Positions 1,252 through 64,000 of a DNA stretch of 64,000 nt are shown here, piece by piece; the first letter of the stretch is position 1, and each line of letters begins with the position of its first letter. Source of the DNA: an uncultured delta proteobacterium (GTDB lineage: Bacteria > Myxococcota_A > Polyangia > Fen-1088); contig CAVYGB010000008.1 in assembly GCA_963767925.1 (NCBI GenBank), positions 1,504,001-1,568,000 of the forward strand, given 5' to 3'. The notes under the pieces are model-generated. The model had not been told where the DNA came from and ran no database searches. It saw only the letters and a list, made by a program, of their open reading frames with translations. The translations under genes were made by a program, and so were the position numbers.

Positions 1252-4200
1252 ATGGCCCGCGCCGGCTCTCCGTTCGTGACCGTCCGTGTACTGGGTTTCC
1301 TGGCTCTGCTGCTGTCCCAGCCCACGCAGGCGGTCTCCCCGCCCGCACCCACGTGGTTCGATCGCCTCTTCGAGCAGGAGCGGGCCGATCTCGCGCAGCG
1401 GGTGGGGCTCCCCGAAGCCGTCTCCTCGCTGTCGGCGCTGATCGCCCTCGAGGAGAACGTCGCCCCCGGCCGGCTGGAGGAGATCCTCCGCAGCACGGTG
1501 CAGGAGCCCCGCACCGATCCGCTGGTCGCGGCGCAGGCCAGTTACCGGCTCGCGCTGGCCGAGACCCGCCGCGGTGAGGTCGACTCGGCCCGGGCCCGCT
1601 ACCGGGCCATGGGCCTGGTGAGCGAGTTCCAGGTGGTGGGCCCCTTCGAGGCCCAGGGCCGGGGCGCGGTGGGCCGACCCTATGCGCCCGAGACCCCCGA
1701 GGGTGGGCCGGGACCCGACCGCCGCTTCGCCGGCAAGGAACGCGAGGTCACCTGGAGGCCCGCCCCCAACGTCCTGCGCGATGGCTCGCTCGCCCTCGAC
1801 GGCCTCCTGCGCCCGGACAGCGACGCCGTGGCCTACGCCCTGACCTACCTGCACAGCGAGCGCCGGCAGCCCATCGTGCTCCGGCTCGGCAGCCCAGGTC
1901 CGATCAAGGTGTGGGTACAGGGGAAGGTGGCGTTCGAAAAGAACGTCGTGCGCGATGTGCGGCTGGACCAGGACGCGGTGACCGTGCTGCTCGAGCCTGG
2001 CGAAAATGCCGTGCTCATCAAGACCGTCGTCACCAGCGGCGCCTGGCGCCTGTTCCTGAGAGTGACCGATCAGAAGGGACGCCCGCTGCCCAACCTGCGG
2101 GCGACCGCCGCCGGCGCCGCCTATCCGCTGGGCCCCGACCGCGGGCCCCGCGCGGGGGCTCCGCCCCGCGACCTCGGGGCGATCCTGCTGCAGCGGGCGA
2201 CGCGCAGCCCCGCCGCTGCTCGGGGGCCGGCCTGGCTCGACTACGCCCGCTACCTGGCGCTCTACCGGTCCACCGACCGCGAGGGCAAGGACCTCGAGCA
2301 GGCGCTCGATCAGGCGGCGCGGGCCGGAGCCGGCACCCGCGCCCTCCTGCTGCTGGGGGAGCTGGCCACCGAGCCCGACGACCGACGGCAGGCGCTCGAG
2401 CGCGCGGCGGCCGAGGCGACCGATCCCGAGGAGAAGGCGCTGGCGCTGGCCCAGCTCGGCCTGCTGGCCCGCGCCAGCCGCCGCGAGAGCGCAGGCCTGG
2501 AGCTGCTCCGCGCCGCGCTGGCCGCCGACCCCACCTGCGTGCCCGCGGTGCTGGCCCTCGCCGCCGAGGAGCAGCTCGCCGGCCTCCCCGCCGCCGGGCT
2601 GGCCCGCCTCGATACCCTGCCCGAGAACCTCCGGGTCCTGCCGATGGTGCGGGCGGCCCGGGCGCGGGCCCTGGAAGCCCTGGGCCGCCGGGCGGCGGCC
2701 GACCGCGAGCTGGCCATGTTGTTCGAGAGCCGCCAGACCGACGTCGAGCTGGGGCTGGACGTGGCCCGGGCGGCCCGCCTCGATGGCGACTCCCAGCGGG
2801 CGATCTTCCTGCACGCCAAGCTGGCCCGGCAGCGCCCCGATCTCTCCTTCATCGTGACCGAATGGGCCCGCCTCCTCGAGGGGGGCGGCGACATCCCGGG
2901 CGCCCGGCGCGTACTCGAGCAGGCCATCGAGCGGTTGCCCGACGAGGCGATCTTGCACGAGGAGCTGGGCCGCTTGCTGGTGCGAGCGGACGACCTCGAG
3001 GCGGGCGTCAAGCAGCTTCGCCAGGCGCTCACCCTGCGGCCGCAGAACCCCGTCCTGCGCCGGTACGTGGCCCGCCTGGCCAGCGACGCCGACGGCCGGC
3101 AGGGCGACGGCGGGGCCGACTGGGCCCGGAGCTGGGTGGAGGACGGCCGGGCCCTCGCCCGCAGCGCCCTCTCCGGCGCCGCGACCCAGGCGAGCGACGA
3201 CTCGGGGGCGGCGGTGCTTGTCGATCAGCAGGTCGTCCGGGTGCACGGCAACGGCCTCTCCGAGCGGTTCGCCCAGCGCCTCGTGCACGTCCGCACCGAG
3301 CAGGCCGCCCGGGAGCAGCTCGAGTTCCTGGTCCGCTACTCCCCCGGCACGCAGGAGGTGGAGATCCGGAGGGCCCAGATTTACCGGCGCGCCCCGGGCG
3401 GGGAGGTGCTCCTGTTGCAGGCGACCGGCCGCGACGATCGCGATCTATCGGAGCCCTGGTACGGCCTCTATTACGACCTGCGGGCCGAGGTGGTTGTGTT
3501 CGAGGGCCTGCGGGCGGGGGACGTGCTCGAGATCCAGTACGCCGTCTCCGACGTGTCTCCGGAAAATGCCCTCGCCGGCTACTTCGGGGACCTCGACTTC
3601 CTGGCCGAGACGGTGCCCCGCCAGCGCTGGCGCTACGTCCTGATCGGGCCAGCCGACCGGCGGTTCTTCTTCAACCGCCCGGGGGTGGCCGACCTGGAGT
3701 ACCGCGAGGAGCAGAAGGGCAACGAGGTGGTCTTCACCTTCGCCGCCCGCAACATCCCCCGGGTGGTCTCCGAGCCCGGCATGCCCGGGTACGCCGAGGT
3801 GTCGCCCTACCTGCACGTCAGCACCCACTCCGGCTGGCAGGAGATGGGCCGCTGGTACTGGAACCTGATCGAGGATCAGCTCTCCGCCGACAGCAACCTG
3901 ATCCGGGCGGCGACCGAGGCCACGGCTGGCGCCCGCACCGTGCTGGAGAAGGTCCGGGCCGTGCACCGCTTCGTGGTGGAGAACACCCGCTACGTCGCAC
4001 TAGAGTTCGGGATCCACGGCTACAAGCCCTACCGGGTCACCCAGGTGCTGTCGCGCCGCTTCGGCGACTGCAAGGACAAGGCCTCGCTGATGCTGGCCCT
4101 GCTGCGGGTGGTGGGCGTGCCCAGTGAGCTGGTCCTGCTCCGCACCCGGCAAGGGGGACGGGTCGAAGCGAGCCCCGCCTCCCTGGCGGTCTTCGACCAC

Positions 4201-5088
4201 GCCATCGTCTACGTGCCCGGGCTGGCCCTCTACCTCGACGGCACGGCGGAGTTCGCCGGGCTCGACGAGCTCCCCTTCCAGGACCAGGGGGTCACCGCCT
4301 TGCGGGTGGGCCCCCAGACCGCCGAGCTGGTGCTGACGCCGGTGATGCCGGCGGCCGCCAACCGGGCGGTTCGCCGCTGGCAGGCCAGCGTCGACGAGCA
4401 AGGCGGCGCCCGGGTGAGCGAGGAGATCGCGGTGAGCGGCCAGGCCGCCCCCGAGTGGCGCGAGCACTATCAGACCCCCGGCGAGCGGCAGGAGCGCTTC
4501 AGCAAGGTGTGGAGCGGCCGCTTCCCCGGCGCCCAGCTCGAGACGCTCGAGATCGACGGCCCCTCCGACCGCAACCGTCCGGTGGTGGCCCGCTCGGTGG
4601 CCCTGGTGCCCAAGCTGGCCGATCCGGCCGGGGCGGGCCGGCTCAAGCTGCCGGTCAGCGCCCGGGAGGAAGACTTCGTGCGTTCCTACGCCCGGCTGTC
4701 GCAGCGGCGCCACGAGCTCGTGCTGGCCTACCCCTGGCAACAGGAGCAGGAGCTGTCCTTCCGGGTCCCCGAGGGCTGGCAGGTCGAGGGGTTGCCCGCC
4801 CCCCGCCAGCTCGACTCCCAGTTCGGCCGCTTCCGCCAGGAGGTCGCCGTCTCCGACGACGGCCGGCACATGACGGTGCGTTCGCTGGTCGAGGTGGCGC
4901 AGAACCGCATCGCCCCCAAGGAGTACGGGGAGTTCCGGGCCTTCCTCGCGGTGCTCGATGGAGCCTTCCGGCAGACGGTGACCATCCGCAAGGAGGTCGC
5001 CGGATCCACCGAGCCGCCGGCCGAGAAGACCGAGCCCCGGCCCCTCGAGCCCGAAAAGCGCGACACCGGAACGGAGAGCCGCCAGTGA
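1252..5088 (+). CDS. Secreted TPR + DUF3857 + transglutaminase-like (+DUF3858-like) protein with intact Cys-His-Asp triad
   Basis: Signal peptide; TPR-like helices; GDVLEIQY (DUF3857 end); GDCKDKA, FDHAI, YLDGT motifs. Confidence 0.88.
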   Translation: MARAGSPFVTVRVLGFLALLLSQPTQAVSPPAPTWFDRLFEQERADLAQRVGLPEAVSSLSALIALEENVAPGRLEEILRSTVQEPRTDPLVAAQASYRLALAETRRGEVDSARARYRAMGLVSEFQVVGPFEAQGRGAVGRPYAPETPEGGPGPDRRFAGKEREVTWRPAPNVLRDGSLALDGLLRPDSDAVAYALTYLHSERRQPIVLRLGSPGPIKVWVQGKVAFEKNVVRDVRLDQDAVTVLLEPGENAVLIKTVVTSGAWRLFLRVTDQKGRPLPNLRATAAGAAYPLGPDRGPRAGAPPRDLGAILLQRATRSPAAARGPAWLDYARYLALYRSTDREGKDLEQALDQAARAGAGTRALLLLGELATEPDDRRQALERAAAEATDPEEKALALAQLGLLARASRRESAGLELLRAALAADPTCVPAVLALAAEEQLAGLPAAGLARLDTLPENLRVLPMVRAARARALEALGRRAAADRELAMLFESRQTDVELGLDVARAARLDGDSQRAIFLHAKLARQRPDLSFIVTEWARLLEGGGDIPGARRVLEQAIERLPDEAILHEELGRLLVRADDLEAGVKQLRQALTLRPQNPVLRRYVARLASDADGRQGDGGADWARSWVEDGRALARSALSGAATQASDDSGAAVLVDQQVVRVHGNGLSERFAQRLVHVRTEQAAREQLEFLVRYSPGTQEVEIRRAQIYRRAPGGEVLLLQATGRDDRDLSEPWYGLYYDLRAEVVVFEGLRAGDVLEIQYAVSDVSPENALAGYFGDLDFLAETVPRQRWRYVLIGPADRRFFFNRPGVADLEYREEQKGNEVVFTFAARNIPRVVSEPGMPGYAEVSPYLHVSTHSGWQEMGRWYWNLIEDQLSADSNLIRAATEATAGARTVLEKVRAVHRFVVENTRYVALEFGIHGYKPYRVTQVLSRRFGDCKDKASLMLALLRVVGVPSELVLLRTRQGGRVEASPASLAVFDHAIVYVPGLALYLDGTAEFAGLDELPFQDQGVTALRVGPQTAELVLTPVMPAAANRAVRRWQASVDEQGGARVSEEIAVSGQAAPEWREHYQTPGERQERFSKVWSGRFPGAQLETLEIDGPSDRNRPVVARSVALVPKLADPAGAGRLKLPVSAREEDFVRSYARLSQRRHELVLAYPWQQEQELSFRVPEGWQVEGLPAPRQLDSQFGRFRQEVAVSDDGRHMTVRSLVEVAQNRIAPKEYGEFRAFLAVLDGAFRQTVTIRKEVAGSTEPPAEKTEPRPLEPEKRDTGTESRQ

Positions 5089-54594: not shown

Positions 54595-54622
54595 AGTTGA
54601 CATAATATCTCTTATCGGACAC
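54595..54622 (-). other. dif-like XerC/XerD recombination site
   Basis: Minus strand GTGTCCGATAA-GAGATA-TTATGTCAACT; 11-6-11 layout, XerD arm 9/11 and XerC arm 6/11 identical to E. coli dif. Confidence 0.88.
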
Positions 54623-54686
54623 CTCGACTGTGGCAGCTAAGTAAGGAATGTCCGCGTAAGCGTCGCGTCAGATACAAGCGGCGGGC

Positions 54687-55862
54687 ATGGAGAAGCCCCC
54701 GGAGCTGGTCACGATGAGCACGAAAGAGATCGACCGGCTGGAGGTCATTCGGCGCGTGCTGGAGCACGGTCTCAAGCGAAGGAAGGCGGCTCAGCTGCTC
54801 GGAATCACGAGCCGGCAGGTGTGGCGGCTGTGCGAGACGTACAAGAGCGAAGGCCCAGCTGGGCTGGCGTCGAAGCGCCGAGGCCGTCCCAGCAATCGCC
54901 GCCTGTGGCAGGACCTGGAGAAGCGAACCGTCGAGCTCGTCCGAGAGCTATACGGCGACTTCGGGCCGACGCTGGCCCGGGAAGGCACCAACGGGCTCGG
55001 CCAGGGCGTGACCCAGTTCGGGCGGGCCCTGTCGGAGCTCAACATCGACAGCATCTGCGCGAACACGCCTCAGGCCAAAGGCCGGGTCGAGCGGATGAAT
55101 TCAACGCTGCAAGACCGGCTGGTGAAGAAGCTGCGCCTCCAGGGCATCAGCACCATGGAGGCCGGCAACGCCTTCGCGCCCAAGTACATGGAGGACTTCA
55201 ACCGCCGATTCGCCAAGCCGCCCCGCAACCCGCACGACGCGCACCGCCCCGTCGACGAAAAGGTGCTCGAGGACGTCTTTGCCTGGCGCGAGGAGCGCCG
55301 AATGACCCGCAATCTCGTTGTCCACTTCAAGCGCGTCTCGTACCTGGTCGAGCCGACACCCGAAGCGCTGAAACTCGGGGGCCAGAAGGTGCAGGTTCGC
55401 GAGTGGCAGGACTGGAGTGTCGAGATCAGCTGCGATGGAGTCCCCCTGCCCTACGCGGCCGTTGACAAGCAGCCTCACGTCGCGCCCGGGGACATCGTCG
55501 ACAATAAGCGCCTCGGCGCCATCCTCGTGACGATCCAGGACATGCAGACGAAGCGGGACGAGGCGCGACTCGCCTCGCCGAAGGTGAAGCTTGCGGACAA
55601 GGAGCGGCTCCGGGCCAAGCGCCTCGCCATGCTCAAGGAGAAGGCCTTGAAGGCCAAGGAGCCTCGACCCGCGCATCCTCCCAAGGTGGTGCGGCCCGAG
55701 CGAATCACGCTCGCTGGCGTCGACCCCAACAGCCCAGTTCAAGCGTTCCTCGATCGGTTCGCCGTCGAGCAGGCCGAGCGCCGGCGCAAGTACAACGAGG
55801 CGGGCAACGACCGCACGCGGGCCCGTGAGTTCATGGACGCACGCAGTCGACCGACCAGCTGA
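54687..55862 (+). pseudogene. IS1202/ISNCY transposase with in-frame deletion of most of the DDE core
   Basis: HTH (MSTKEIDRLEVI..RQVWRL), DFGPTLARE joined to TQFGRALSELNI..ANTPQAKGRVER..TLQDRL; QIDG/DD/YSD segment absent. Confidence 0.85.
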
Positions 55863-55902
55863 GCAGTCGGAGGCCTGGCCAACCTTCGATGAGGCCACCA
55901 AA

Positions 55903-55995
55903 TGTGATCACCACTGGTTCGACTCTCGCGGGCCGGCGTGCGCTCTGCGCGTCTCTGTCGACGACGCAAAGACGGAGTCGGCGTTTGCGCATCTC
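55903..55995 (+). pseudogene. Degenerate fragment of the IS1202 transposase catalytic core
   Basis: CDHHWFDSRGPACALRVSVDDAK-TESAFAH matches the recalled family pattern DGS.H.WFE.RGP.C.LL..VDDAT..ES. Confidence 0.7.
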
Positions 55996-56194
55996 GGTCA
56001 TCGCGAACGCCGCGATCGGAGCATCGAGGACGGAGCGATCGGACCATTGTGAATGGGGGTCTGGTTGGAGCGAAGCGACGCTGAGAAGCGGACGTCTCTA
56101 CTTTAGCCGTAACAGACATGTAATAGCCGAAAGTGTACCTTTTACCCACTGTGCCCGTCCCCCCCCCCGGCTCGGAGTGACCAGGAACGCAACC

Positions 56195-58621
56195 ATGATG
56201 AACGACCTGCGCTACGCTTTTCGCCAGCTCGTCCGCGCGCCCGGCTTCTCGGCGCTCGCGCTTCTGACCATCGCCCTCGGCATCGGCGCCTGCACGGCCA
56301 TCTTCTCGGTGGTCTCGGGCGTGCTGCTGCGGCCGCTGCCCTATCCGGAATCCGACCGCCTGGTGGTGGTCCGCGAGACCAACTTTCCCAAGTTGCCCGA
56401 GTTCTCGGTGGCGCCGGGACAGTACTTTTCCTGGGTCGCGCAGTCTCGCAGCTGGGAGAGCCTCACCGCGGTCCGCCGCGCCTCCTACAACCTGACCGGA
56501 CGGGGCGAGCCTCAGCGGCTCCTGGGTCGCCGCGTGACCGCGAACTTTCTGCGCACGTTGCGGGTGGCGCCAGCGCTGGGGCGGGATCTCTCCCCCGAGG
56601 ACGAGGTGCCGGGTCACGAGCGGGTAGCCATCGTTAGTCACGGTTTCTGGCAGCGGCAGTTCGGCGGCCGGCCCGATGTGCTGGGGCAGACCATGCAGCT
56701 GGACGGTCAGCCGTTCACGATCGTGGGGGTCATGCCCGCCTCGTTTGGCTGGGTCGGGAAGGGCGTCGTGCCGCAGCCGGGCGCCCGCGCCGACCTCTAC
56801 ACGCCCGCCGCCTACACCGCCGACGAGCGCGGGCAACACGGGGCCCACTACATCGGCGTGTTCGGCCGCCTCAAGACGGGCGTCACCCTCGATCAGGCCC
56901 GCGCCGAAATGACGGTCATCGCCGATCGTCTGGCCAAGCAGCTCCCCGACACCAACAAGGGCTGGGGGGTAAAGCTGACGCCGATGCTGGAATCGGACGT
57001 GGGCGAAGCGCGGCCGGTGCTGCTGGCGCTCCTGGGCGCGGTCGGCTTTCTGCTCCTCATCGCCTGCGCCAACGTCGCCAACCTGCTCCTGATGCGGGCC
57101 ACGGCCCGCAGCAAGGAGATCGCCGTCCGGGGCGCTCTCGGCGCCGGACGCGCCCGGATCGTGCAACAGCTGCTCACCGAGAGCGTGGTGCTGTCACTGC
57201 TGGGCGGGCTGCTCGGGCTGGCCGTGGCCAAGGGCGGGCTGGGCGCGCTGCTGGCGCTCGCGTCGGAGACCCTGCCGCGCGCCGGTGAGGTCTCGGTCGA
57301 CCTGAGCGCGCTCGGTTTTTCAGTCGGGCTCGCTCTGATCACCGGCGTCATCTTCGGGCTGGTGCCCGCCGTCCAGATCACCCGCCTGGACCTGCAGCAG
57401 ACCCTGAAGCAGGGCGGGCGCGGTTCCACCGAGGGCGTCGCCCGGCACCGCCTGCACGGCGCACTGGTGGTCGCGGAGCTAGCCATCGCCCTGGTGCTGC
57501 TGGTCGGTGCCGGCCTGCTGATGCGCAGCTTCGTGCACCTGCAGCGGGTCGACGTTGGCTTCCGTCCGGAGAACGCCTTCGCCGTCGCCCTGCAATTGTC
57601 CGAGAAGAAATACGAGACCCCCTCGCAGAAAGTGTCCTTCGAGCAGCAGGCCAGCCGACGCCTGGCGGCTATCCCGGGCGTGTCGGCCGTGGGCGCCGCC
57701 CACGTGGTCCCGCTTTCGGGACCGGACCACAACCTAATCTTCACGATCAAGGGCCAGCCGCCCATCGCCCCGTCGGATCTACCGAGCACCAACTATTACG
57801 CCGCCAGCGGCGGCTACTTCCAGGCGATGGGCATCGGTCTCGTGCGCGGGCGCTTCTTTGCTGGCACCGACACCGCCGCTTCGGAGCCGGTGGCCATCAT
57901 CAACGAATCGATGTCCCGCAAGCATTTCCCGGGTGAAGATCCGATCGGCAGGTTCATCAATGTCACGGGCGATTCCGACAAGTGGCTGCGGATCGTCGGC
58001 GTCGTCCGGGACGTGCGCCAGTACGACCTGCACAGTGACGTCACTGAGCAGACGTACGAACCGCTGGCTCAGAACCCATTCGAGCTCCTGACGTTCATCG
58101 TGCGCACCTCCGGCGGCAGCGCCGGCCTGCCCGCCGCCATCCGCCGCGCCATGTACGACGTGGACCGCGACCAGCCGATCGCCACCATCCGTCCGCTGCA
58201 GGAACTGGTGGACGGAGCGATGGCCCGCCAGCGCTTCGCCACGTCGCTGTTCTCGGTCTTCTCGGCCACGGCGCTGCTACTCGCCGCCATCGGCATCTAC
58301 GGGGTGATGGCCTATTCCGTGCGCCTGCGGACCGGCGAGATCGGGGTACGCATCGCCCTCGGCGCCGGCAGCGGCGACGTCCTGGGCCTGGTCTTTCGCC
58401 AGGGCGGCCGCCTGCTGGCGCTTGGGCTGGCCGCGGGGATCGCGGGTGCGCTGGTGCTGACCCGCGTCCTCTCGACCCTCTTCTTCGGCGTCAGCGCCCA
58501 CGACCCGCTCACCTTCGCCGCCATCGCCGCGCTCCTCACCGTCACCGCCGCCCTGGCCTGCCTCTTCCCCGCCCGCCGGGCGATCGCCATCGATCCCATG
58601 ACCGCCTTGCGGTCGGAGTGA
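56195..58621 (+). CDS. Duplicated MacB-type ABC permease (ADOP-like), no ATPase partner
   Basis: DLRYAFRQL..APGF, LLRPLPY, LLIACANVANLLL, RSKEIAVRGALGAG, EIGVRIALGA, PARRA..DPMTALRSE. Confidence 0.93.
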   Translation: MMNDLRYAFRQLVRAPGFSALALLTIALGIGACTAIFSVVSGVLLRPLPYPESDRLVVVRETNFPKLPEFSVAPGQYFSWVAQSRSWESLTAVRRASYNLTGRGEPQRLLGRRVTANFLRTLRVAPALGRDLSPEDEVPGHERVAIVSHGFWQRQFGGRPDVLGQTMQLDGQPFTIVGVMPASFGWVGKGVVPQPGARADLYTPAAYTADERGQHGAHYIGVFGRLKTGVTLDQARAEMTVIADRLAKQLPDTNKGWGVKLTPMLESDVGEARPVLLALLGAVGFLLLIACANVANLLLMRATARSKEIAVRGALGAGRARIVQQLLTESVVLSLLGGLLGLAVAKGGLGALLALASETLPRAGEVSVDLSALGFSVGLALITGVIFGLVPAVQITRLDLQQTLKQGGRGSTEGVARHRLHGALVVAELAIALVLLVGAGLLMRSFVHLQRVDVGFRPENAFAVALQLSEKKYETPSQKVSFEQQASRRLAAIPGVSAVGAAHVVPLSGPDHNLIFTIKGQPPIAPSDLPSTNYYAASGGYFQAMGIGLVRGRFFAGTDTAASEPVAIINESMSRKHFPGEDPIGRFINVTGDSDKWLRIVGVVRDVRQYDLHSDVTEQTYEPLAQNPFELLTFIVRTSGGSAGLPAAIRRAMYDVDRDQPIATIRPLQELVDGAMARQRFATSLFSVFSATALLLAAIGIYGVMAYSVRLRTGEIGVRIALGAGSGDVLGLVFRQGGRLLALGLAAGIAGALVLTRVLSTLFFGVSAHDPLTFAAIAALLTVTAALACLFPARRAIAIDPMTALRSE

Positions 58622-58699
58622 GGACGGTCATGGCGGGCGGGCGCCTCGCTCGGGACCACTATGATCGTCCCCGCCGTCGTAGGAGGCCGGAGCCGACCC

Positions 58700-58895
58700 C
58701 ATGAACCGGCCAAGCGCCGCGGCCGGCCTCCCAAGGATGCCTCCCGAGTCGTTCTCGCCGGCGTGGACCCTCGCGGCCCCGTCCAAGCGTTCCTCGATCG
58801 CTTCGCCGTCGAACAGGCAGAGCGTCGAAGGAAACAAAACACCAAGAGCAACGATCGGAAGCTTGAGCGGGAGTTTGCTGCTGCCAAAGCCCGCG
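58700..58895 (+). pseudogene. Second, diverged copy of the transposase C-terminal tail
   Basis: LAGVDPRGPVQAFLDRFAVEQAERRRK vs LAGVDPNSPVQAFLDRFAVEQAERRRK at 55710-55790. Confidence 0.85.
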
Positions 58896-58980
58896 GCTCA
58901 GAACGGCACCCCCTCGGTGCGGCGCTGCTGACCCACAAGGACGCGTCGCATCCATGACCGGGGCATGACGACGATTTTCT

Positions 58981-59008
58981 GGAACCCGCGGGCGGGGTGC
59001 TGCGTGAA
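58981..59008 (+). promoter_or_regulatory. Putative ECF-type autoregulated promoter
   Basis: GGAACC-N16-CGTG just upstream of the ECF ATG (59019). Confidence 0.6.
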
Positions 59009-59018
59009 AGAGGCGAAA

Positions 59019-59621
59019 ATGGTGACGCTCCAGCCCACGGCCGACGCGCCCGGCGCGTCCGGTGAGCTCGACGAGATCACCCTCGCGCGCGCGCAGAAGG
59101 GGGAGCGGGTGGCGTGGGCCGCGCTGGTCGCGCACCACCAGGGCGCGGTCTTTGCGCTGATCTCTCGCATCCTCGGCCGCCGCCGCGGCAGCGCGGCCCA
59201 TCAGGACCTGGCGCAAGAGACGTTCCTGCGCGTATTCCGCGCCCTGCCCACCTTCGAGCGCAGGGGGCCGGCCCGGCTGTCGACCTGGATCCTGACCATC
59301 GCGACGCGGCTGGCCATCTCCGAGCTGCGGCGCCGACCGGTGGAGTACCTGCTGCCCGTCGACGTCGCCGATCCGGCGGCGCCGGACGACGGCGGCGCCG
59401 CGCGGCGCGGGCTGGCGCGGGCGCTGGAGAAAGCGATGGGCGAGCTGGCCGCGCCCTACCGCGCAGCCTTCGTGCTGCGCGAGCTGCACGATCTGTCACA
59501 CGAGGAGATCGCGAGGGCGCTGGACATTCCGGTAGGCACGGTCAAGTCGCGCCTGTCGCGCGCGCGGCAGGAGCTGGCGTCGGCGCTGCGCGATCTCGAG
59601 GGAGGCGGCAAGCATGGCTGA
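59019..59621 (+). CDS. ECF RNA polymerase sigma factor
   Basis: DLAQETFLRVF, LSTWILTIA, FVLRELHDLSHEEIA..L..PVGTVKSRLSRAR. Confidence 0.95.
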   Translation: MVTLQPTADAPGASGELDEITLARAQKGERVAWAALVAHHQGAVFALISRILGRRRGSAAHQDLAQETFLRVFRALPTFERRGPARLSTWILTIATRLAISELRRRPVEYLLPVDVADPAAPDDGGAARRGLARALEKAMGELAAPYRAAFVLRELHDLSHEEIARALDIPVGTVKSRLSRARQELASALRDLEGGGKHG

Positions 59622-60999
59622 TAAGCCGACGGACGACGGTCTCGACCCCCGCTACCGCGAGGTGTGGAGGCCGGCGGCACCGCCGACGGGCTTCGTCGAT
59701 CGCGTGCTCGCGCTGACGGACGCCGAGGGGAGCGTGGCGGCGCGCAAGCGGCGATCGCTGTTCGGGCGCGGCGCCATCGCGATGGCGGTGCTGGCGGCGG
59801 CCGCCGCTCTGGTCATCGGCTATCGGCCGCGCGCGCGCGAGGGGGAGCATTTGGCGACGACCGCCCGCCTCTCGGTCCCGATCACCGAGCAAGCGGCGGC
59901 CGTGCTCGAGCCGCGCGCGCACCTGCGCTGGCGGTCGGCCGACGGTCGCGTGACCGTCGAGCAGGACGCCGGCGAGGTCTTTTATCGCGTCGACCGCGGC
60001 GTGGCCTTCGAGGTGAAGACGGCGGCGGGGTCGGTGCTGGTGAAGGGAACCTGTTTCAAAGTGGAGGTGAACGCGATGAGCCCGATTACTCACACTCTCA
60101 TCGGCGTCGTGTCGGGCATCGCGATCACCGCGTTGGCGGTGACGGTGTATGAAGGGATGGTCGAGGTGCACAACGAGCGCGGCGAGACCCGCCTCGGCCC
60201 GGGCGACCGCGGCGTGGCCGAGCCGGGCCAGGCCCCGACCGTGGCCCGGCCTGCGGGCGCCGCGCGGGCGAGCAACGTCCTCCGCCTGAGCGACGCGACT
60301 CTGGCGGCGCTCGGCGCGGACACGCGCGCCACCATCGCGGCCCTCGAGCAGAAGGCGGCGGCCCTCTCGTCCGAGCTGGCGGAGGCGCGGCGCCTGGTGC
60401 TGGAGGGGCCGCCCGACGAGGACGGCATCCCCAAGAAGAAGATTCACGACTTCACGCCCGAGGAGCTGGCCGTTCTCGCCCGTCGCTGCGAGATCCGCTA
60501 CGACGTGCCCAAGTTCCTCAGCAACGGCCGGATCGAGCTCAGAGGCCTTGGCGAGGCCAGCAACGGCATCAGCGAGGCGCAGGTGGCGCAGCTCAATCAG
60601 CACCTGCGGGAGTTCGCGCCCGACAACCTGGACCGCCTGCGCGCACTCTACCGGGAAGGGACAGGCGATCACGTCGGCGCCGCGACGCTGGCTCCGAAGG
60701 TCATGACGCAGGCCCTCTTCAAGCGCTACCCGCACGAGCTCGACCGCGCCCAGCAGCGTCTGTCGCTGGAGCGCGCTGGGCAGCCGGCGCCGCCGCCTGA
60801 TCCCGGCGGACCGAGCGTGGTCGAACGGCTGCTGCGATTGATCTTCGCCGCCGGCGACGAGTTGGAGCGACGGGGCGCGCAGGTGCTCGGCGCCGAGCGC
60901 ACCCACGAGCTGCGCCGCACGGGCGCAGGCTACGAGCCCGGCCTCATCCAGTATGGCTGCCCGAATGGTTCGACCTCGCGAATACTCGGCGCAGAGTAG
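59614..60999 (+). CDS. FecR-domain anti-sigma factor
   Basis: Overlaps sigma; PPTGFVDRV, TM, GEVFYRV..FEVKTAAG.V.VKGTCFKV, VYEG.VEV, LGPGD. Confidence 0.85.
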   Translation: MADKPTDDGLDPRYREVWRPAAPPTGFVDRVLALTDAEGSVAARKRRSLFGRGAIAMAVLAAAAALVIGYRPRAREGEHLATTARLSVPITEQAAAVLEPRAHLRWRSADGRVTVEQDAGEVFYRVDRGVAFEVKTAAGSVLVKGTCFKVEVNAMSPITHTLIGVVSGIAITALAVTVYEGMVEVHNERGETRLGPGDRGVAEPGQAPTVARPAGAARASNVLRLSDATLAALGADTRATIAALEQKAAALSSELAEARRLVLEGPPDEDGIPKKKIHDFTPEELAVLARRCEIRYDVPKFLSNGRIELRGLGEASNGISEAQVAQLNQHLREFAPDNLDRLRALYREGTGDHVGAATLAPKVMTQALFKRYPHELDRAQQRLSLERAGQPAPPPDPGGPSVVERLLRLIFAAGDELERRGAQVLGAERTHELRRTGAGYEPGLIQYGCPNGSTSRILGAE

Positions 61000-61236
61000 A
61001 CGACGAGCGATCCTCCTGCCGCGCGGCAGCCGGCCCGGCGATGGTAGTACCAGGCGCAGCGCCACGCCATGGCCGCGAGCAGCAGCAGCCAGAGGACGTA
61101 GATGCCGAGGAGGCCGGTCTTGTGGCGCACGATCGCGGCGGCGAGGCCGAGGGCGTAGAAGGGACGAGGTGGAACAAGAAGGGGACGCGGCCGAAGATCG
61201 GAGCGTGGGCGAACACACTAGCCAGTCTCCCAACCG

Positions 61237-61284
61237 GACATTTCAACTTTGCTCAGAAGCAGACATTTCAACTTTGCCGTGACA
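61237..61284 (+). mobile_element. Well-preserved IS1202-type right end
   Basis: GACATTTCAACTTTGC twice (61237-52, 61262-77) followed by CGTGACA. Confidence 0.82.
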
Positions 61285-62936: not shown

Positions 62937-63824
62937 CTGAGTCGATCGATCTTCGTGTTCGTGTTGGTGACCGCCGGCGTCCCCGGCTGCGCGTCGCTGC
63001 GGCGGGCGCCGATGGCCGCCGGGCCGGACCTGCTCTACGAGGTCACGCTGCTCGAGGACGGCGCCGCTGGCATCACCGGCGAGATCAGCATGCAGGTGAA
63101 AGGGGCGGCGGAGGGGGTTACGACCTTCACGCTGGCCGAGGGCCGCGACCACGGGGACGTGGAGCGCAACTTCGCCGGGCTGGTTGCCAGTACCCCCGAC
63201 GGACAGGCCCTGGCTGTTGCCCGGCGGCCCGGCCGCCCCCAGTGGGTGGTACAGCACCGGCCGGGCCAGCGCCTGTCCCTGCATTGGCGGCAGACCCAAG
63301 CGCTGCCCAGGTGCGAGGACCGGGCCGGGCGACACTTCCGGGTGGCGGCTGCCAGCGGCCTCCCCTATCCCTATCCCCCACACCTCGGTGAGGAGGCCCA
63401 GCGTATCGGCTTTCGCTGGCGTGGGTTCGCCGAAACGGCGGGCTGGGCGACCGCCTCGTCTTTCGGGCTGGAACGAGACGTGACGTTCGCAGCCACCCGC
63501 TGGCAGTTCCTGCACACGCACTCTCTGGCCGCGCCGCACATGACGTTCACTCGGCGGCAACTGGACCCCGACCGCGCCCTGGTGCTGGCGGTCGTCGGTC
63601 AGCAATGGAAATTCTCTCGCGACGCCCTGGCTGACGACGCGATTCGCATCGTGCGCGGGGTGCGGGCGCTTTTCGCCCACCCTGGCCCGCCCCTCCCGGG
63701 GAGCGGGCGCGGTAGTCTGGGCGTGTGTCGCTCCACACGAAGATCATCGGACGCCAGAGCGGGATCTGCCTCTACGGCCTGGCGCCGCCCAAGCGGGCCA
63801 CGGCCGCCGCCGAGATGGAGGTAA
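62937..63824 (+). pseudogene. Probable truncated M61-like peptidase/lipoprotein
   Basis: Lipoprotein-like N-terminus, W..ASSFG segment; no HExxH before the frame runs into the next gene. Confidence 0.4.
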
Positions 63825-64000
63825 TCGCCGCCCAGCAGGAGGCGAGGCTGGGGTCGCTGGGATTGGATGGTCTCATCATCTACGAGCTCCAGGACGAGGC
63901 CGAGCGAACCTCGGAGCCCCGCCCTTTCCCGTTCCTCCCTACCGTCGATCCGCTCGCGTATGCGCATCAGCACCTCGGGCGCCTGGCGGTGCCCAAGATT
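63725..64000 (+). CDS. Methylenetetrahydrofolate-reductase-like protein (3' truncated by window)
   Basis: GICLYGLAPPK..LDGLIIYELQDEAERTSEPRPFPFLPTVDP; not in the ORF track because it has no stop in the window. Confidence 0.7.
   Translation, partial: MSLHTKIIGRQSGICLYGLAPPKRATAAAEMEVIAAQQEARLGSLGLDGLIIYELQDEAERTSEPRPFPFLPTVDPLAYAHQHLGRLAVPKI

Follow-up and report, generated by a model that had tools for sequence, protein, structure and literature searches.

In the window, a 64,000-nucleotide stretch of DNA from an uncultured delta proteobacterium (G000:C8:1504001-1568000, where G000 is the source assembly of 9.3 Mb, 71% G+C and 13 contigs), the block at positions 54595-61284 starts from a predicted dif, the chromosomal site at which replicated chromosomes are untangled (resolved), and runs through two incomplete insertion sequences (IS) of the IS1202 family, a permease gene and a gene pair for an extracytoplasmic function (ECF) sigma factor and a FecR-type anti-sigma factor. 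On balance, and with only a slight leaning, we read this block as the record of dead IS1202 elements that were inserted in turn at dif, the sigma/anti-sigma pair being plausible cargo and the permease gene having been relocated separately. Coordinates are window positions unless prefixed by a contig. Every piece of the block reads on the + strand, and all the pieces that had been listed in an earlier inspection of this DNA (the sequence-only reading) were confirmed in place and in that one orientation:

54595-54622 (+): predicted chromosomal dif, a 28-mer with two 11-bp arms flanking a 6-bp centre
54623-54628 (+): 6-bp spacer (CTCGAC) separating the IS left end from the XerC arm (5-6 bp in relatives)
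54629-56114 (+): dif-proximal IS1202-family element, 1,486 bp, defective, with TGT...ACA termini
54629-54655 (+): left end of the proximal element, beginning TGT
54687-55862 (+): transposase open reading frame (ORF), 391 aa, matching NCBIfam NF033594 (ISNCY_2 transposase model) and helix-turn-helix (HTH) Pfam models
55986-56083 (+): copy of a 98-bp repeat at the expected inner transposase-binding site of right end 1
56088-56114 (+): right end 1, that of the proximal element, terminating in ACA
56195-58621 (+): intact ADOP-family duplicated permease, 808 aa (TIGR03434, E 7e-296)
58661-58957 (+): second transposase tail, an ORF of 98 codons with homology from ~58700 to a diverged IS1202-family C-terminus
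58965-59621 (+): ECF sigma factor gene with Pfam and NCBIfam matches, likely start codon at 59019
59614-60999 (+): FecR-type anti-sigma gene, 461 aa, overlapping the sigma stop
61232-61284 (+): right end 2, with an ACA terminus and two perfect 16-bp binding-site repeats

On the + strand the 28-mer is composed of the XerD arm AGTTGACATAA, the centre TATCTC and the XerC arm TTATCGGACAC, with the XerC arm facing the IS; read on the opposite strand, it runs from an XerC-type arm through the 6-bp centre to an XerD-type arm. With as many as 3 mismatches allowed, nothing else in the window matched it (shuffled sequences give an expectation of 0), and it was also the sole match across all 13 contigs of G000. 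In a set of 41 genomes, 24 of them from the same family, the core (at most one mismatch) was present in 29 genomes overall and in 22 of the 24, against one hit in total for the reversed control. The centre of these cores is near-constant (TATCTN-type) and sites with such a centre occur about once per genome; several relatives hold additional Xer-like sites with other centres. Compared to predicted dif sites, as given in the accessible part of the source (PMC2731167), the arms match at 9/11 and 10/11 positions for Myxococcus xanthus and at 9/11 and 9/11 for Anaeromyxobacter. The site also coincides with a change in strand polarity: GGGNAGGG was counted 410 times on the + and 144 times on the − strand left of dif, but 174 and 389 times, respectively, right of it, and its cumulative skew over the 3.3-Mb contig C8 peaks at C8:1,565,874, 7.3 kb from dif at C8:1,558,608. 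This motif heads a de novo ranking of strand-switching octamers; GC skew alone gives a wide plateau from 1.3 to 1.66 Mb with its maximum at 1.40 Mb, 158 kb off dif. Because it is unique in the genome, conserved in relatives, close to the Myxococcales predictions and located at the GGGNAGGG polarity flip, we assign 54595-54622 by sequence criteria as the true dif of the chromosome, at the replication terminus and polarity switch, just as the sequence-only reading had it, and predict XerC/D recombination there. A XerD-family gene of G000 exceeds the curated model cut-off. As further observations on contig C8, GGGNAGGG resembles a KOPS (FtsK-orienting polar sequence) motif in its polarity, with 74% and 69% of copies on the dif-pointing strand, and GGGGAGGG and GGGCAGGG rank as the most strand-switching octamers; within the 6.7-kb IS block, four polar motifs point in mixed orientations.

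The element adjoining dif has the correct termini, with one recognisable binding site at each end, and its two ends agree at 18 of 27 positions, as read from the end strings. With a profile made from relatives' ends only, both were weak matches (E 0.03 for right end 1 and E 1.6 for the left end). Its transposase scored 258.7 bits against NF033594 (cut-off 250) in a match split into two stretches, and about 122 alignment columns are absent relative to the 487-527-aa proteins of relatives, an in-frame loss of ~120 codons that bears out the deletion already suspected in this gene. N-terminal HTH domains, the Glu region and the C-terminus have been kept. The missing segment spans the QIDG and YSDK motifs of relatives, which have the full core; we take these motifs to contain both catalytic aspartates of the DDE core, so that on this alignment the proximal transposase is predicted to be without an intact core, both aspartates having been deleted. 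The 98-bp repeat in right end 1 has three other copies of ~91% identity (C2:543687, C2:2144743 and C10:1846102) and contains an internal tandem of ~23 bp (CATCG.GAAC...GCGATCGGA). A G000-wide search revealed no intact transposase, and no further transposase or IS end of this kind, so the intact copies whose existence had been envisaged are not found in this assembly.

The proximal transposase is ~47% identical in amino acids to annotated ISKpn21-family transposases on enterobacterial plasmids; with others, from Cupriavidus, Acinetobacter and Rhizobium, the identity is 42-54%. Homologs occur in 13 of 40 relatives. Judged from these matches and from NF033594, the IS pieces belong to the ISAba32/ISKpn21 subgroup of the IS1202 family, the type that targets Xer recombination sites (xrs), in agreement with the family named by the sequence-only reading. 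For the ISAba32 subgroup, the accessible portions of two sources (10.1101/2022.12.17.520857; PMC10132070) describe a left end oriented toward the XerC side of the site and 5-6 bp away from it, 5-6-bp repeats, and partial copies that retain the left end, and those of the former also describe repeated insertion at one Xer site, where the proximal copy is the latest.

We found the same geometry in the relatives of G000. Genome G003 contains two types of 1.8-kb element, ~10 copies in all, in which each end has two binding-site repeats; among the seven copies examined, an Xer-like site lies 5-6 bp left of the left end in five, and 5-6-bp duplications were seen in three. When dif-like loci were compared in 16 of the 28 relatives having one, picked for a dif-like centre, a TGT left end was located 5-6 bp past the XerC arm in seven. 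We then define a strict pattern as a dif core, a 5-6 bp spacer, TGT, and ATGTC at the right distance. It occurs at 15 sites in 14 genomes, representing 7 of 19 genera, of a family set of 89 (G000 and 88 others; an order-level search yields the identical 89 genomes), and not once in the reversed control, with spacers and end sequences that vary between genomes. The ends are thus not placed at random relative to dif: such targeting is frequent in the family, in which roughly one genome in six has a left end of this kind at dif. The occupants of the 16 compared loci are for the most part left-end stubs, 13-55 bp long and with unrelated genes beyond; none has a full transposase or right end within the 7-12 kb examined, and G001, a sister species in the same genus as G000, retains ~100 broken N-terminal transposase codons at dif. 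That the left end should persist is explained by the fact that a deletion taking it out would need an endpoint within the 5-bp spacer or within dif.

Of the outer element, only the last ~80 transposase codons and a complete two-site right end remain. Over its last ~76 residues, the tail shares 63-66% identity with that of the first transposase (73% over 131 nt). Right end 2, with its repeats at 61237-61252 and 61262-61277, was matched in the window with E 5.9e-10 by a profile made without window sequences, and this was the sole match in the genome. A candidate left-end stub of the outer element 4 bp past right end 1 (from 56119) was discarded, the end profile giving no match there even at E 1000 with filters off. 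In a species-representative genome collection, the right end 2 motif was found at 14 loci in Cupriavidus, Massilia, an Acidobacteriaceae metagenome-assembled genome (MAG) and a Vulcanimicrobiota MAG, all of them ordinary 1.5-1.7-kb IS and some in tandem stacks with 5-6-bp gaps. In five Cupriavidus loci (L111, L113, L116, L120, L121), IS1202-type elements that share the 16-bp site of the outer right end are arranged head to tail, with 5-6 bp from a right end to the next left end (14 bp in L116).

These features suggest a course of events in which IS of the ISAba32/ISKpn21 subgroup would target Xer sites on their XerC side, with the left end facing the site at a distance of 5-6 bp. Since insertion leaves dif intact, the same spot would be open to further insertion, and at least two elements may have arrived there successively. 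The proximal one would have decayed by losing its catalytic segment and by receiving a foreign 98-bp repeat in its right end, and the sigma/anti-sigma pair would have ridden in as cargo of the outer one, in the passenger position of so-called transporter IS.

As far as the accessible text of each source goes, passenger genes are known in ISKpn21, ISKpn65, ISKpn63, ISRel10 and ISShal2 (10.1101/2022.12.17.520857), and three transporter IS are listed as tISKpn21, tISKpn65 and tISRel10 (PMC10132070). In ISKpn21 the passenger ORF is positioned between the transposase and the right end. This layout fits the sigma/anti-sigma pair, which begins at the stop codon of the transposase tail and ends ~240 bp ahead of the inner right-end repeat, and does not fit the permease; the left half of the outer element is gone. 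The anti-sigma protein scored 23.7 bits against Pfam FecR, just below the cut-off of 24, and its Atlas look-alikes are FecR clusters. Within the module, a candidate promoter of the sigma gene (GGAAC-N17-CGT, 58981-59005), which we read off the sequence and presume to be of ECF type, would make the module self-sufficient.

The distribution of the pair also bears on its origin. No close homolog of the anti-sigma gene was found in the 88 other family genomes (E 1e-70), and the best match in the class sample was 40% identical. The pair is otherwise absent from these genomes, save for a sigma piece in G012, which belongs to a different genus of the same family: the 689 bp at 58955-59643 are 93% identical in nucleotides to G012, although G000 and G012 are typically 69-79% identical. 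In G012 this segment is again found on the XerC side of dif, at a distance of 1,165 bp and behind two small ORFs, and just 26 codons of the anti-sigma gene are left there. On its left the segment is bounded by the identical nucleotide in both genomes, which in the window is the stop codon of the transposase tail. For a genome of 7.1 Mb, we estimate the probability of a chance position less than 5 kb from dif at ~0.001. A scan of metagenomes with the anti-sigma protein gave one contig of 2,065 bp, 94.9% identical over 58970-61036 and too short for flanks. A comparable arrangement was identified in G097 (L157, G097:C4:474554-490000, at ~1403-4764), where a 3.36-kb IS1202-type element beside a degenerate Xer-like site has an ORF of 532 aa, secreted-looking and not matching any known family, between its transposase and a good two-site right end; a relative of this element in G020 (86% nt) is without the ORF, and no target duplication was seen at the G097 element. 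Because the pair occupies the ISKpn21 passenger position, because the G097 element bears in that position an ORF absent from its G020 relative, and because chance hardly accounts for a sigma segment near dif in another genus, we tentatively regard the pair as cargo of the outer element, a claim that we put at a little under even.

Several results weigh against this history of successive insertion and cargo. Preservation is better at the outer right end than at either end of the proximal element, which is hard to square with a simple reading of the outer element as the older; of the proposal that newer elements pushed older ones outward, then, what stands is at least two generations in one orientation on the XerC side, and what fits badly is the age assigned to the outer one. 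No target-site duplication was found at either element, the flanks being CTCGAC (at dif), GACAT (after 56114) and TCACGG (after 61284), and with no surviving duplications and no intact copy in the genome, the system is dead here. The order transposase, ECF, FecR and right end was not found a second time in the 89 family genomes, in the species-representative collection searched by end motif or in metagenome contigs, and at the 14 right-end-motif loci there was no match at E 1e-6 to the proteins of the permease, sigma or anti-sigma genes or to the tail. The G012 sigma piece has no adjacent IS sequence and fits an independently moving module as well as cargo. The IS pieces bound just the first 6.7 kb of a 21.5-kb variable zone, and exchange with the G012 lineage is not confined to IS, since a second segment shared with it lies outside the IS-bounded block: C8:1568014-1568650 (window ~64014-64650), 637 bp, is 94% identical to G012:C80:25852-26488. 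This segment, noted at window 63725-64000 and beyond, takes in the 3' two-thirds of an ORF (307 aa) without clear family assignment and marks a second recent exchange with the G012 lineage.

Patchworks can moreover arise without cargo, as illustrated by G060 (L124, G060:C14:639000-655000). There, dif is followed by a left end and 113 codons of a transposase; next come a gene for a GH53 glycosidase and a GGDEF fragment, and the pile closes with a further left end of this IS, decayed and with 185 broken codons, no right end lying between. The block could likewise have formed from at least three IS1202 insertions at dif that decayed while illegitimate recombination in an unstable terminus dropped in unrelated DNA, the tail at 58661-58957 and the end at 61284 then deriving from different elements. 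Such a cargo-free origin accounts for non-IS genes between two IS remnants with no right end, as in G060, for the mostly bare 13-55-bp stubs before unrelated genes at the dif of relatives, for a permease that arrived outside the passenger position, for the extent of the variable zone, for the 94% G012-like segment beyond the block and for the absence of target duplications. Less readily accommodated are a sigma module that starts exactly at the tail stop and is followed in the same orientation by a complete two-site right end, which is the transporter-IS layout, and the presence of the same sigma segment within 1.2 kb of dif in a second genus (chance ~0.001). We consider this origin a serious contender, though one that is more probably wrong than right.

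Whichever way the sigma pair arrived, the permease gene requires a separate account. It occupies the place of the left end and ~80% of the transposase of the outer element and, because it replaces these, is not a normal passenger. Its homology to G001 spans 56167-58621, from 28 bp upstream of the start codon through the stop, limits that point to the relocation of a single gene. The best relative in G001 (72% aa, 76-78% nt, within a genome-wide range of 67-78% between G000 and G001) stands behind a second ADOP gene in a TolC-HlyD-ABC-ATPase efflux operon, whose flanks are syntenic with contig C10 of G000, where the permease is absent and a 670-aa amidohydrolase gene is found instead (loci compared: G000:C10:680001-690000 (L159) with G001:C551 and C571). 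No direct repeats of note flank the permease. The gene may accordingly be pictured as having moved from the efflux operon elsewhere in the genome through a later rearrangement. The sequence-only reading had both the permease and the sigma pair as passengers of the outer element; this holds for the position of the sigma pair, but the permease is not in a passenger position and no second transposase-cargo-right end unit was found.

Comparison with the sister species further reveals that these genes are not old residents of the terminus. On the XerC side, synteny between G001 and G000 restarts 7.2 kb from dif in G001 and 21.5 kb from dif in G000, so the whole first 21.5 kb of G000 is variable, and G001 has different genes beside dif. 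The permease and sigma/anti-sigma genes are thus not syntenic core genes, in keeping with the differing G001 locus and with a FecR gene found only in G000 among the 89 genomes. Were both the permease and the sigma pair core genes of long standing, with the outer IS pieces there by chance or irrelevant, the G+C content at third codon positions of the intervening genes (0.86-0.90, like the rest of the genome) would be as expected; yet the FecR gene occurs in G000 alone at E 1e-70, G001 has other genes at dif and its permease ortholog elsewhere, right end 2 was recovered at E 5.9e-10 by an independent profile, and the tail is 63-66% identical to that of the first transposase. We regard the likelihood of this explanation as close to nil.

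The Xer machinery itself could in principle have collected the genes, with XerC/D integrating modules at dif as in integrative mobile elements exploiting Xer (IMEX) or the dif modules of Acinetobacter, and the IS as bystanders. Both the Acinetobacter pdif/dif modules and IMEX resemble the block in that accessory genes collect at Xer sites, but they use pairs of such sites and XerC/D, whereas in the window no second half-site accompanies the one site present. When as many as 8 of the 22 arm positions are allowed to differ, the window gives only the true dif and two distant chance matches with 8 mismatches, and the site is single genome-wide; with no second Xer-like site in the window, capture of this kind is unsupported and, in our estimation, very improbable. 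Repeat arrays in relatives nonetheless speak for it in a general way, as they suggest that gene shuffling linked to Xer sites may exist in the family. Repeats of ~100-106 bp, each with an Xer-like site and all in one orientation, are found in G003 (L131, G003:C11:153000-172999; four in 20 kb, spaced 3.7-7.4 kb, of 15 such sites in all) and in G010 (L132, G010:C100:1-10000; three in 10 kb). The genes between these repeats are variable and in many cases truncated (DUF1552/DUF1592 pairs, RhaT, peptidase S46), and the repeats may represent chromosomal Xer-site cassette arrays. Integrons are a looser parallel, sharing with the block one fixed site that collects genes, the newest adjoining it. They differ in that here there is no integrase, attC-type cassettes or common promoter, and a DDE transposase carries itself along. 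Neither an integrase nor cassette sites were found in 54-64 kb. The description of this dif as an integron-like collection point is therefore overstated, as there is no recombinase-plus-cassette system and nothing active is left.

The block shares most with the ISAba32/ISAjo2/ISKpn21 subgroup: a homologous transposase, TGT...ACA termini and an additional inner binding site; a left end separated by 5-6 bp from the XerC arm of an Xer site, chromosomal dif included; and repeated insertion at the same site, in tandem and one orientation, with partial copies that keep the left end. It differs from the published stacks, which have a clean 5-bp spacer, in having non-IS genes between the pieces and no target duplication, both copies being dead. 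Like tISKpn21, tISKpn65 and tISRel10, it has extra coding DNA between a transposase stop and a right end, but the published transporter-IS passengers are single ORFs of unassigned function, whereas here the passenger would be a candidate two-gene ECF sigma/anti-sigma module with a promoter-like motif. The hosts in the ISAba32-subgroup papers, in the text accessible to us, are mainly gamma-, beta- and alpha-proteobacteria (10.1101/2022.12.17.520857; PMC10132070), unlike the apparently myxococcotal host here, whose placement follows from the resemblance of its dif arms to the Myxococcales predictions and from the Atlas taxa of the anti-sigma look-alikes. For the IS1202 family, earlier work describes both the stacking of elements at dif and the carriage of passenger genes (10.1101/2022.12.17.520857; PMC10132070), so neither is a novelty in itself. 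What our analysis adds is the host lineage, the frequency at dif in the family and the candidate two-gene regulatory cargo. A literature search found no work on IS1202 elements in Myxococcota (the one co-mention was an unrelated Klebsiella study), with the proviso that the host table of the preprint may list deltaproteobacterial members, and a search from 2023 on for "IS1202 family" with "passenger" returned nothing relevant.

These data extend Xer-site homing by the IS1202 family from Proteobacteria to apparent Myxococcota, supply a sequence-defined dif and KOPS-like motif for an uncultured lineage, and offer a candidate instance of a regulatory gene pair travelling as IS cargo. They also advise caution, since IS remnants around genes do not alone demonstrate cargo. 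A broader conception, in which dif-homing IS1202 elements would be vehicles delivering self-contained regulatory modules (an ECF sigma/anti-sigma pair with a promoter of its own) and other genes to the termini of different genera and in which, together with the Xer-repeat arrays, the XerC side of dif would be a recurrent landing pad for horizontally acquired genes, appears to us rather unlikely.

Because G000 derives from a metagenome (84% complete, 5% contamination), we also considered whether the block could be a chimera of co-assembled related populations. Twenty soil or metagenome runs contain 11-16% of the sampled words, and four runs were compared with the block at 90% likeness, giving contigs of 65-691 bp. 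None of the contigs from these four bridges the junctions at 56114, 58621 or 58957, which, like the quality figures of the assembly and the 93-94% identical segments held in common with another genus, is what an assembly artefact would predict. The block is, however, embedded in a 3.3-Mb contig; one soil run yielded pieces with 0-1 differences from the proximal transposase, permease, sigma and anti-sigma genes; and one contig of another run spans 60631-61244, from the 3' part of the anti-sigma gene into the inner right-end repeat. An artefact is accordingly, to our mind, extremely improbable. In two soil runs, a single contig each, to be read with caution at 90% likeness, joins 60962 to 61180. 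This 217-bp shorter form is without the last 12 codons of the anti-sigma gene and the ensuing spacer.

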